From a virus (taxonomy: Duplodnaviria; Heunggongvirae; Uroviricota; Caudoviricetes): 14,054 nucleotides of DNA. Location of the stretch: the IMG/VR virus record IMGVR_UViG_3300028988_000038; one strand, given 5' to 3'. The number at the start of each line of letters is the position of its first letter. Position 1 is the first letter of the stretch. Made by a program: the position numbers and the translations under genes. The notes under the pieces are model-generated. The model worked only from the letters and a program-made list of their open reading frames with translations, was not told the DNA's origin and made no database searches. This document shows positions 1 through 14,054 of the stretch, in pieces.

Positions 1-64
1 GCACGAATATAATGGTGGGTTACCACCAAACGAATCGGAAAATCGATACTGGAAAAAACTCTAA
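1..64 (+). CDS. IS3-family transposase OrfB, C-terminal fragment (5' partial)
   Basis: Frame starting at base 2 reads [20 protein letters not shown] then TAA at 62-64, identical to the C-terminus of the 272-aa OrfB ORF at 12835-13653. Confidence 0.8.
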   Translation, partial: HEYNGGLPPNESENRYWKKL

Positions 65-94
65 CTCGGTGGCCAGTTTTTGTTGACCACTTCA
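1..94 (+). mobile_element. IS3-family insertion sequence (IS911-like), right-end fragment; the rest lies upstream of the window
   Basis: Bases 1-94 are the exact reverse complement of 12805-12898 in the complete copy (checked by eye over 1-64). The element terminus ends ...GGCCAGTTTTTGTTGACCACTTCA at 94. Confidence 0.85.
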
Positions 95-541
95 CAGATA
101 GATGTGTTCAACGATTGGCTGCGGTGCAATGCTGGCTACCAGCAGCCCGGCCAGATCATCCGCTTCTGCATCTTTTGCAATGAGTTGGGTAACTCCAAGC
201 GCGGTCATCATTTTGAGGATGTATGGCTTCTGGATAGCAAAGCCTTCCTTCATCTTTTTCATATCAGGATCGTCGTCGCGATTTGCTTTGTAGTCCGGGT
301 AAAAGTCGCGACGCTTGTCACTAAATCCATCCCAAAGAATCATAGGTCGGGCATGGAGGATGGAGGCATAACGACGGACGTTCTTAACAAAGCCGAAAGC
401 AGCCTGTACTTCCATTTCGCCGTTGTGCAATTTGTCAGATTGTTGGTGGTAATAACCCAGGCTATTGCCATCTACGAAGAGATAATTCACCGGTACATTC
501 CTTCCAAAAAGTAAGGCGTCCGTAGACGCCTTACTGGTCAC
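92..541 (-). pseudogene. 5'-3' exonuclease / flap endonuclease (T4 RNase H - Pol I 5'-nuclease family), 3'-truncated by the IS insertion
   Basis: Translation carries FEN-type motifs: NYLFVDGNSLGYY, RRDFYPDYKANR and AEADDLAGLLV. The ORF stops about 17 residues after the EADD motif, and the stop codon (92-94) is supplied by the IS terminus, so the C-terminal half of the protein is missing. The true start is probably the GTG at 488-490 (SD GGAAGG at about 499-504) rather than the GTG at 539-541. Confidence 0.65.
506..535 (-). terminator. Intrinsic-terminator-like hairpin downstream of the gp32-like gene
   Basis: Perfect 11-bp inverted repeat, AGTAAGGCGTC (510-520) and GACGCCTTACT (525-535), with a 4-nt loop. 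On the minus strand it is followed by UUUUU (510-506). It lies 16 nt after the gp32-like stop codon. Confidence 0.5.
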
Positions 542-550
542 GTAATGGGA

Positions 551-1579
551 TTACAGAGAGTCCAGCTCTCTCAGTAGGTCATCCAGACCTTCATCTTCCG
601 TCGCAGATGCGGCTGCTACAGATGTCGCTGCGACTGCTTCAGACTCTTTGACTGATACTGCAACGGCAGCGGGACTTGCTTCTGGTTTAAATTCAGTTTC
701 AACGGCACGGAGGATTTCTTCATCAACCAGACTGGTTGGTTCAGAAGCTGGGGTATGAGCGGTAGCTACAGCAGTCGCACCCTCCGTATGACCAGTGACA
801 GAGCCAAATCCAGGTAGTGCCGCAGCCGATGTTTTCGCGGTTGAGGAAATTGCTGGTGCAGATGCTGCGGCAGTTGGTGCAGCGATGCCAATCAGACGAC
901 CCATAGTGCGAACTGTCGACAGAAGACGAGTTTCATCAGCCTGATTTGCGTATGCGATCAGATCATGCTGGGTGTTCCAGAATTTATCTTCGATATCGCC
1001 TTTGTAGACTTTACGCTTAGGCGAGACGTCATATTTGGTATCGCGACCAGAGCCAGTACGTTTAATCAGGAATGCGTAGCCTTCCTCTTTGCTCAGTGGA
1101 TTGCCGATATCATCAGCGATGTCTTCGGTGATTGCTTTGCAGATATCATCGAATACAGTAGACGGCAGCTCGATTAACTGGCATTTCTCAGCATCTGCGA
1201 AATCCTCACGAGCAGAAAGAATGCCGTTGACCAGGTAGCGAGGAGTGGCACGCATTTGACCGATGCGTTCTTCCATTGCTTTGTTACCCTTGTGACGAGC
1301 GCGACCTTCCATCACCATTTCGCATAGCTGACAAGCGCGACCGTGAGTATGTTGCTCACAAATATAAGCGTTGGTTGCTTCTTTACCTTCCTCGTTCTGA
1401 TACTTAACGTAGTGCATACCGAAAGTCTGGAAGAACTTACCGTTTGGGTCGTCTTTATTCGGGAAGATGCGGATATAGTTGACGCCGTCTTTTAAGCGAG
1501 TCAGATCAACGTTGTTACCACGTTTGGCGGCAATGTCTTCACGAGTTTTGTTAAGCAAATCAAGTAATGTCTTAGACAT
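551..1579 (-). CDS. Phage T4 gp32-like single-stranded DNA-binding protein
   Basis: YIRIFPNKDDPNGKFF resembles the T4 gp32 segment I recall as IRFLPSKNDEQAPFA. A Cys-x3-His-x5-Cys-x2-Cys zinc-site pattern (CEQHTHGRACQLC) is encoded at 1322-1360. An Ala/Ser/Thr-rich linker is followed by an acidic C-terminal tail (DEGLDDLLRELDSL) typical of SSBs. Strong SD AAGGAG precedes the ATG. Confidence 0.6.
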   Translation of the reverse strand: MSKTLLDLLNKTREDIAAKRGNNVDLTRLKDGVNYIRIFPNKDDPNGKFFQTFGMHYVKYQNEEGKEATNAYICEQHTHGRACQLCEMVMEGRARHKGNKAMEERIGQMRATPRYLVNGILSAREDFADAEKCQLIELPSTVFDDICKAITEDIADDIGNPLSKEEGYAFLIKRTGSGRDTKYDVSPKRKVYKGDIEDKFWNTQHDLIAYANQADETRLLSTVRTMGRLIGIAAPTAAASAPAISSTAKTSAAALPGFGSVTGHTEGATAVATAHTPASEPTSLVDEEILRAVETEFKPEASPAAVAVSVKESEAVAATSVAAASATEDEGLDDLLRELDSL

Positions 1580-1696
1580 GTGTTTCTCCTTGTTGTGATT
1601 TGGCCGATGGCGCTATGCGCGTTGGGCTTTCGTTCATTCGTGGCTCTTTCGAGCTGTTAAATGATAGATCAGTACTTACTTATTATCTATCAAAAA

Positions 1697-2152
1697 TCAA
1701 CGGGGAGTAATAAAGCGTTCAGAGCCTAATCGCTCTAATTCAACGATGGCCATCTTTGACGCCTGAACGATCATGTCTCGGCGATGCGAAAAGGCGGCGA
1801 CAGCATGTTTGTATATGTCTGCGATGTGCCGTGCTTCATCCAACTTCTGCCTTTTAGACAGATACTGTGGGTTTGTTTTAACCTTAGCGTCCAGTACAGA
1901 TTCGTTGAACTTAATGCCGTTCATACTCAAGTTCTTACGCTCTGTGTCGTATAGCTTTGCTTCAACAGCTTCAAGGTTAAGTTTTGCCTCTGCGACACTT
2001 CTTTCTGCATGAGCGAGTTTTGAGCCATACTCCATTAAAAGGCGGGGTTGTCTACGCCAGACTTCCTCCAGATTGTCTCGGTCAAACTCGAGATCAGACA
2101 TTATTTTCTCGTAAATATCGGCGATCATGCACATTTCCTTATCACTTATCAT
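1697..2152 (-). CDS. Hypothetical protein, predicted coiled-coil, in the replication operon
   Basis: 151-aa ORF co-oriented and tightly spaced between the DnaE C-fragment and the gp32-like gene. The sequence is charged and helical in character; no family is recognised with confidence. Confidence 0.45.
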   Translation of the reverse strand: MISDKEMCMIADIYEKIMSDLEFDRDNLEEVWRRQPRLLMEYGSKLAHAERSVAEAKLNLEAVEAKLYDTERKNLSMNGIKFNESVLDAKVKTNPQYLSKRQKLDEARHIADIYKHAVAAFSHRRDMIVQASKMAIVELERLGSERFITPR

Positions 2153-12371: not shown

Positions 12372-12490
12372 GTAGGCCTTTTTTATAAAATCTGTGATTC
12401 TTCTCAGGATAAATTATCTAAACTAAAAATTGTGTTTTGTGTTGGCATCTGCTTGAATAGACGCATGTTTATTCAGATATGGAATAATCA

Positions 12491-12838
12491 GTGAACAACC
12501 AAATTCATTGGGACTACCCATTCTCAGAAGAATTCGGCAGTGGGATGGTACACAGACAATTCACTGTGGGAAGCACTATTTATGCCGTTGGGTTTGAACA
12601 AATATTGACGATGGATGATTTCACACGTAAGGGAGTTGATATCCTAAATGTACATCCAACATTCCGGTTTCCTCTGAGTGGTGTATGGGGAGTGATTTTT
12701 GACGAAATTGACCCTGTAGAAATGGATTTCAAAGGATTTCGGCATATCCAACATCAAGGCTTGGCAGGTGGTCAAGTGCTTTTGAATGTTGCAAGTATAA
12801 TCTTTGAAGTGGTCAACAAAAACTGGCCACCGAGTTAG
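12491..12838 (+). CDS. Hypothetical ORF running into the IS end (possibly a gene fragment truncated by the IS, or spurious)
   Basis: GTG-start ORF with a weak SD. The last 11 codons ([11 protein letters not shown]) and the stop are encoded by the IS terminus (12805-12838). No recognisable motif. Confidence 0.2.
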
Positions 12839-12840
12839 AG
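12805..12840. repeat. IS terminal inverted repeat (right end, IRR)
   Basis: TGAAGTGGTCAACAAAAACTGGCCACCGAGTTAGAG matches the reverse complement of the other terminus at 21 of the first 27 positions. Confidence 0.8.
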
Positions 12841-13653
12841 TTTTTTCCAGTATCGATTTTCCGATTCGTTTGGTGGTAACCCACCATTATATTCGTGCGG
12901 TCTTAGTGCGCTGTAATATCCAACGATATAGTCCGTTATTGCGTGAGCTGCATCGCTGAAGCTTACATAGCCCGTCGCCGGCACCCATTCGTTCTTCAGA
13001 CTCCTGAAGAAGCGCTCCATTGGGCTGTTATCCCAGCAGTTTCCACGCCGACTCATACTCTGCCTGATCCGGTATCTCCACAGTAACTGCCGGAACTGCC
13101 TGCTCGTATAATGACTGCCTTGATCGCTGTGGAACATCACCCCGACGGGCTTACCACGGGTTTCCCATGCCATTTCCAGTGCTTTCATGGTAAGCCTGCT
13201 GTCCGGCGAGAACGACATGGCCCAGCCCACTGGTTTTCTTGCGAACAGGTCGAGAACAACGGCGAGGTACGCCCAGCGCTTACCCGTCCAGATATAGGTC
13301 ACATCACCGCACCACACCTGATTTGGCTCGGTCACGGCGAACTGCCGTTCAAGGTAGTTAGGGATAGCAACATGTTCATGACCACCACGTTTATACCGGT
13401 AAGTCGGCTGCTGACAGCTGACCAGCCCCAGCTCTTTCATGAGTCTGCCAGCAAGCCAGCGCCCCATCTGGTAGCCTCTCTGGGTTGCCATTGTGGCGAT
13501 GCTTCTTGCTCCGGCAGAGCCGTGGCTGATGCCATGCAGTTCAAGTACCTGGCTGCGTAATACAGCCCGTCTGCCGTCTGGCTTTTCAGGACGGTTTTTC
13601 CAGTATTTGTAGCTGCTGCGATGGACCCCGAACACATGGCAGAGAGTGGCCAC
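12835..13653 (-). CDS. IS3-family transposase OrfB (integrase/DDE catalytic domain); expressed natively as an OrfAB fusion by -1 frameshifting
   Basis: 272-aa ORF with the DDE-transposase pattern (WCGDVTYI..., [10 protein letters not shown]..., [18 protein letters not shown]). It lies in the -1 frame relative to OrfA. Confidence 0.85.
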
Positions 13654-13679
13654 AGGATAACGCGCCCTGAGTTTCCCGA

Positions 13680-14018
13680 TTATCGAGAACTGTTCAGGGA
13701 GTCTGACATCAAGAGCGCGGTAGCCTTTTTTAATATTTCATTTTCCATTTCAATACGTTGTAGCTTTTTCCTGAGCTCACGGATTTCAATTTGTTCCGGG
13801 GTAATGGGGGAGGCTTTTGGTGTTTTTCCCTGCCGCTCATCACGTAATTGTTTCACCCATCGCGTCATTGTGGAAAGGCCGACATCCATAGCGCTGGCTG
13901 CATCTGCCACGGTGTAATTCTGGTCAACGACCAGTTGAGCGGATTCGCGTTTAAACTCTGCGCTGAAATTTCTTTTTTTCATTATGGCACCTGTGTTGTT
14001 CTGAGGTGAGCATATCAC
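13680..14018 (-). CDS. IS3-family transposase OrfA (HTH DNA-binding plus leucine-zipper region)
   Basis: [53 protein letters not shown]... matches the IS911 OrfA sequence as I remember it; ends shortly after the slippery site. Confidence 0.85.
13725..13731 (-). other. Programmed -1 ribosomal frameshift site (A AAA AAG) for OrfAB transposase
   Basis: Plus strand CTTTTTT at 13725-13731 gives AAAAAAG on the minus strand, read as tt-A AAA AAG in the OrfA frame. OrfB codons lie in the -1 frame. Confidence 0.75.
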
Positions 14019-14054
14019 CTCTGTTCAGGTGGCCAAATTCAGTAAACCACTTCA
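14019..14054. repeat. IS terminal inverted repeat (left end, IRL)
   Basis: Reverse complement reads TGAAGTGGTTTACTGAATTTGGCCACCTGAACAGAGG; the window ends exactly at the last base of the element. Confidence 0.8.

Follow-up and report, generated by a model that had tools for sequence, protein, structure and literature searches.

The stretch of DNA analysed here (the window, 14,054 nt; positions 1–14,054 of IMG/VR record IMGVR_UViG_3300028988_000038, a virus assigned to the Caudoviricetes) has a copy of the insertion sequence (IS) ISEc52 at each of its ends, in opposite orientation, and between them (95–12804) DNA which by alignment is the replication and recombination block of an SSU5-like Escherichia coli phage-plasmid, a well-known type of element. 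This interior is collinear with and 99.9% identical to the plasmid pM160133_p3 (NZ_CP022167.1, 113 kb; window positions 91–12807 aligned), in which both sites are free of an IS. A comparison with relatives lacking the IS had been proposed in the original prediction on this DNA. Identity to the Escherichia phages CMS-2020a, PhiR41_1 and Cyrano is 96–98%; to Salmonella phage SSU5 it is about 80%, in an alignment that covers 60% of the interior. With the SSU5/pHCM2-like phage-plasmids of Enterobacteriaceae it shares gene order, sequence identity of 96–99.9% and a gene content of exonuclease, gp32-like single-stranded-DNA-binding protein (SSB), DnaE, AAA ATPase, CobT-like protein, regulator and integrase, while the lineage in the window differs from them by bearing two ISEc52 insertions. 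We consider it very likely that an SSU5-like phage-plasmid received these insertions as two events, and that the ends of the window are breaks made during assembly.

The right-hand copy is complete. It occupies 12805–14054 on the minus strand (1250 bp), with its right inverted repeat (IRR) at 12805–12831 and its left inverted repeat (IRL) at 14028–14054, and its last base is the last base of the window (14054), a coincidence that had already been pointed out. The termini have the form TG...CA, and the terminal repeats are imperfect, with 27-nt arms of 78% identity that both start with TGAAGTGG. The frame orfA runs from 13982 down to 13680 (100 aa) and contains an A AAA AAG (A6G) slippery site in the correct phase (window 13725–13731, IS 324–330). 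A –1 shift at this site would give a predicted OrfAB of 382 aa without internal stop, the stop codon ending at 12835. OrfAB matches the Pfam families HTH_Tnp_1 (1.4e-14) and rve (1.6e-31), and a weaker match to HTH_21 falls under the curated cut-off (24.1 vs 28.1 bits).

Over its positions 1–1250 the element shows 99.9–100% identity to copies bearing the ISEc52 annotation in 5,426 complete E. coli genomes, and about 94% to those annotated as IS911; the name ISEc52 rests on these PGAP-annotated copies and not on the ISfinder reference sequence. Judged from its sequence, it is an intact ISEc52, a member of the IS3 family and a close relative of IS911. Its length, its TG...CA termini, the 100-aa orfA, the slippery site, the 382-aa OrfAB with helix-turn-helix (HTH) and DDE (rve) domains, and a 3-bp duplication at the left copy are all shared with that family and with ISEc52. 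The earlier label “IS911-like” was right in kind, but with about 6% nucleotide divergence from IS911 it expresses a family resemblance, the precise name being ISEc52. Elements of the IS3 family transpose in two steps via a circular copy (copy-out-paste-in), and their insertion produces short direct repeats of 2–4 bp (PMC3299598). Of the 5,426 genomes, 4,886 contain sequence that matches ISEc52, at a median of 3 places among the genomes with any match, so that any short-read assembler will treat ISEc52 as a repeat. A hybrid outward promoter, composed of a TTGACC hexamer in the IRR and of flanking sequence, was not detected at either junction by a consensus scan.

Of the left-hand copy the window shows the IRR end, the last 94 nt (1–94) of a plus-oriented ISEc52 that is clipped by the start of the contig. 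It comprises the last OrfAB codons, the TAA stop codon (62–64) and the 27-nt IRR (68–94), and is the exact reverse complement of 12805–12898. The inverted copies predicted at 1–94 and 12805–14054 are thus confirmed, with an identity that is exact over all 94 nt. A repeat search returned slightly longer arms (1–99 and 12800–12898, 99% identity), in which the five additional bases belong to the flanks (CAGAT vs AAGAT, with four of five positions matching, about 1.6% by chance). The possibility that these 5 nt form part of the IS was rejected in favour of flanking sequence that matches through coincidence or through a weak target preference. Read in the orientation of the IS, the two target sites, TTAA[CAG]ATAG and GTCA[AAG]ATTA, share A-[C/A]AG-AT, a common motif which may reflect a weak target preference of ISEc52 or chance.

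Both junctions between IS and interior can be compared directly with the uninterrupted sites in pM160133_p3, and the bases next to the visible IS ends, CAG (95–97) and CTT (12802–12804), are those given in the original prediction. At the left site the plasmid reads ...CGCCTGTTAA-CAG-ATAGATG..., with a single CAG (GTTAA-CAG-ATAG), where the window has IS...CCACTTCA-CAG-ATAGATG. When viral, genome and metagenome collections were screened with one degenerate pattern that fitted either of the expected outer junctions, a single match came up, a 67-kb metagenome contig (L010, OBVV01000055.1). The first 55 nt of this contig are the IRL end, after which come CTG and TTAACAGGCGATAGC (the bases directly after CTG being TTAACAGG / TTAACAGGCG). 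Beyond the junction it continues with the remaining part of the exonuclease gene, a small open reading frame (ORF) and recA. As CTG on the outer side and CAG on the inner side correspond to a single CTG in the reference, they represent a 3-bp target-site duplication (CAG on the plus strand of the window, with its inner copy at 95–97), and the left copy is a simple in-situ insertion. The gene that it interrupts encodes a 5'-3' exonuclease (92–490, minus strand; Pfam 5_3_exonuc_N, E = 9.5e-17), which in pM160133_p3 is intact and 314 aa long (positions 4456–5400 of that plasmid). In the window it is truncated after codon 132, the first three bases of the IS supplying a TGA stop, and the 132-aa product is found, as an exact match, in 11 public contigs.

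Two further lesions of this gene were observed in related elements. In a 35-kb scaffold which is free of the IS and about 98% identical (L004, ERZ28622073 scaffold_438), TTA is changed to TGA in the codon right after the left insertion point (10385–10400; CTG TGA ACAGG vs CTG TTA ACAGG in the reference), which yields the same 132-aa truncated exonuclease. This could be an independent nonsense mutation, or the footprint of an IS excision between the imperfect 7-nt repeats CTGTGAA/CTGTTAA that flank the IS. The other case is plasmid p2 of E. coli E03 (L002, NZ_JBUZKL010000003.1), where a further ISEc52, with a frameshifted transposase, is located at the 3' end of the 5'-3' exonuclease gene (4009–5178); this insertion is independent and about 0.7 kb from that in the window. 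Repeated loss of the exonuclease, by the IS in the window, by the TGA in L004 and by the ISEc52 in E03 p2, might conceivably point to selection against this gene, or to a footprint left by excision of an IS.

At the right site, pM160133_p3 reads ...AGTATAATCTT-TGACCATT... (ATCTT-TGACC), which in the window has become ...AGTATAATCTT-TGAAGTGG(IS). Here the interrupted gene is one of unnamed function (12491–12838, plus strand), which encodes 178 aa in the reference (17394–17930 of pM160133_p3) and is split within codon 105. Its ORF reads on through about 10 IS-encoded residues to a stop codon, and the resulting 115-aa fusion product occurs, again as an exact match, in 5 public contigs. By comparison with ATCTT-TGACC in the reference, CTT at 12802–12804 is presumed to be the inner copy of a 3-bp duplication, and we infer that the right copy, too, was inserted with such a CTT duplication. 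A pattern consisting of the IRL end followed by CTT matched the viral contigs L011 and L012, which were recognised by their flanks as unrelated insertions in other phages.

The two inner junctions recur in other assemblies, namely in L003 (IMGVR_UViG_3300029058_000231, 12,870 nt), which corresponds to window positions 19–12888, and in a MEGAHIT k127 contig from ERZ918432 (L005/L009, 12,961 nt, 3 samples). In an alignment of the first 3 kb, the window, L003 and L005 are identical. What differs is the depth to which the IS is retained at the contig ends: 94 nt and the whole IS in the window, 76 and 84 nt in L003, 126 and 125 nt (about k–1) in the k127 contig, and 55 nt in L010, on the outer side of the left IS. 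In L005 the left copy can be followed into the IS for no less than 126 nt. That the same DNA ends at a variable depth inside the IS, depending on the assembly, points to breakage induced by the repeat, and this supports the view that the boundaries of the window are assembly breaks. The original prediction had offered assembly breakage at a repeat as an alternative, and it is borne out by the three other contigs (L003, k127 and L010) that halt inside the IS. Contigs L006, L008 and L007 show a different kind of end, which lies at or one base beyond the left insertion point (...ATCTATCTG or ...CTGT) and has no IS bases; the stop at CTGT in L007 is expected from a mixture of IS-bearing and IS-free alleles, which it suggests.

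In the course of events that we favour, an SSU5-like E. coli phage-plasmid of about 110 kb would have taken up two simple ISEc52 insertions, 12,710 bp apart and inverted relative to each other. The IRR of each copy points inward, and each insertion truncates its target gene. ISEc52 being multicopy in E. coli, short-read assembly would be unable to traverse it, and the unique 12.7 kb between the copies would become a contig of its own with variable IS ends. In the case of the window, the assembler would have carried one end through the entire IS and halted on reaching the final base, beyond which the genomic copies have different flanks.

The window, L003 and L005/L009 all run into the IS at both ends, with no branching at the junction. 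This indicates that an allele with an empty site is rare or absent in those samples, and hence that the two copies probably reside on one and the same plasmid molecule. Some relative ages may also be read from the distribution of the truncated products. The right-junction product is confined to 5 contigs, all of the double-junction type, while the left-junction product has 11, among them L006, a 16.3-kb contig with the left break and an intact dnaE that is expected to run about 4 kb beyond the right site. This nested distribution suggests that the left insertion is the older and more widespread of the two.

Several observations weigh against two insertions in a single plasmid. No record among the 5,426 complete E. 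coli genomes covers either junction, which leaves the two copies without long-read linkage, and none of the best-covering PLSDB matches, obtained with the whole window as query, crosses a junction. For the left copy, inner and outer junctions come from different assemblies. The target-site duplication partners had been predicted to lie outside the window, and this holds for the left copy, where CTG in L010 is CAG on the plus strand; the outer junction of the right copy (expected as CTT followed by TGACCATTATACTG) was not found in the viral, genome and metagenome collections, and a pattern allowing a duplication of 0–6 nt had no match either. Finally, the depth of 94 nt at the left end of the window fits no common assembler k-mer size, and an attempt to identify the assembler from this depth failed for the same reason.

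Among the other possible explanations is a mixed population, where molecules with only the left insertion and molecules with only the right one were joined by the assembler. Other lineages do have the left break in the absence of the right one (L006), and L007 stops at CTGT, exactly where IS-bearing and IS-free alleles diverge. An abundant empty allele, however, would be expected to stop or to branch the contigs, whereas the window, L003 and L005/L009 enter the IS at both ends; also, all 5 right-junction contigs are in the 10–20 kb class and grouped with the double-junction contig L009. We therefore give the mixed population only a slim chance. It is practically inconceivable that a single IS at this locus was represented twice by the assembler, an artefact that would account for a window that begins and finishes in IS sequence and that the original prediction had named as its own refutation. 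Both inner junctions are formed by an IRR, of which one IS has only one, their flanks are different (CAG and AAG, read outward), and both are reproduced by L003 and by the MEGAHIT contig L005/L009 from ERZ918432.

Inverted copies of one IS that bracket a segment are also found in IS-bounded composite transposons and IS-mediated inversions (Tn10-type), and both had been considered in the original prediction. The present case differs from these structures in giving no sign of movement or inversion of the unit; both insertions disrupt a gene where it stands, and the left one, at least, is accompanied by a target duplication of its own. For a composite transposon, in which the IS-flanked 12.7-kb block would move by means of the two outward-facing IRL ends, it can be said that one IS, in two copies that look intact, stands on both sides of the segment. 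Yet the block has been seen solely at its native position in SSU5-like plasmids, where it is collinear with relatives that lack the IS, and the breaks in the two flanking genes coincide with the IS ends, which is what two separate insertions would produce. In addition, the DNA outside the left copy directly continues the interrupted exonuclease gene after a 3-bp duplication that belongs to this single IS. A composite-transposon-like unit is therefore extremely unlikely, and this part of the prediction is not upheld. There is a small but real chance that the 12.7-kb block is invertible, either by recombination between the inverted ISEc52 copies through the RecA of the host or of the plasmid, or because the second copy arose in one step together with an inversion. 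Inverted repeats of 1250 bp, identical over the comparable 94 nt, speak for it, and so does the position of recA, which in the reference as in L010 is found immediately beyond the left IS. The data are neutral on this point, since the four junctions would read alike in either orientation and none of the contigs reaches from one side of an IS to the other. The IS3 family inserts from a circular copy (PMC3299598). This route alone would not be expected to invert the DNA between donor and target. An invertible segment is compatible with, and not opposed to, two insertions. That a lineage circulates in the gut which has the whole replication block (SSB, split DnaE, AAA ATPase, CobT-like protein and integrase) between inverted ISEc52 copies and flips or mobilises it as a unit is, in our estimate, very improbable.

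On the reading as two insertions, a recurrent “viral” contig of 12.7–14 kb from human-gut metagenomes is a fragment of an SSU5-like phage-plasmid that two ISEc52 insertions delimit. The inverted repeats at the termini of such contigs are then IS ends resulting from assembly, and mark the ends neither of a genome nor of a new mobile element. IS insertion has cost this plasmid lineage two genes, that for the 5'-3' exonuclease and one of unnamed function. Ordinary ISEc52 insertions in a well-known phage-plasmid type are known territory, and the finding matters little beyond annotation.

The genes between the two copies begin on the left, next to the truncated exonuclease, with a T4 gp32-like single-stranded-DNA-binding protein (551–1579, minus strand; Pfam gp32, E = 1.7e-66). 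DNA polymerase III alpha (DnaE) is encoded in two parts on the minus strand. An N-terminal fragment of 787 aa (4204–6567) has the Pfam PHP, polymerase III alpha and finger domains and aligns to residues 1–782 of an intact 1172-aa DnaE, and a C-terminal fragment of 389 aa (2255–3424) has the HHH_6 domain and aligns to residues 789–1170. Between them, and splitting dnaE, is a gene for a free-standing HNH/NUMOD3 endonuclease (3421–4155, minus strand; Pfam HNH_3 and NUMOD3). Further along are an AAA_5 ATPase (6748–7983, minus strand; assigned by Pfam for the identical gene in L005 and L009 and by its PGAP name) and a CobT-related protein (8079–10187, minus strand; Pfam CobT and CobT_C for the identical gene, and PGAP name). 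They are followed by a small regulator (10756–11142, plus strand), called a helix-turn-helix transcriptional regulator by PGAP and without Pfam match, and by the tyrosine recombinase/integrase of the phage-plasmid (11137–12240, minus strand; Pfam Phage_integrase for the identical product, and PGAP name).

The only difference between the window and pM160133_p3 in the first 3 kb is a run of G at about 2196–2202, with 7 G in the window and 6 in the plasmid. It is intergenic, downstream of the C-terminal dnaE ORF and before an ORF of 151 aa. The same block of integrase, CobT-like, AAA ATPase and dnaE genes was also met on a chromosome-sized contig of 4.89 Mb (L016, GCA_019584725.1, VCZV01000001.1), a few kb from genes for EamA and isochorismatase, where it would represent either a chromosomally integrated SSU5-like phage-plasmid or a misassembly.

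Related plasmids have a single dnaE of 1172 aa, and PGAP calls the C-terminal part in the window a pseudogene. The stop codon of the endonuclease gene overlaps the ATG of the C-terminal dnaE ORF, and the break maps to residues 782–789. Where dnaE is intact (L002, L006 and L018), the HNH/NUMOD3 endonuclease gene is not present. No Rfam family, such as a group I intron around the HNH gene, was matched at the gathering score. About 120 residues on each side of the break are much more diverged than the remainder of the protein, and these diverged flanks look like the co-conversion tract of a homing endonuclease. In L004, dnaE is split differently, into overlapping ORFs of 665 and 513 aa, and recA contains an intein (11214–13552; Intein_splicing and LAGLIDADG_3). 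The genes for replication and recombination in these phage-plasmids gather selfish elements of several kinds.

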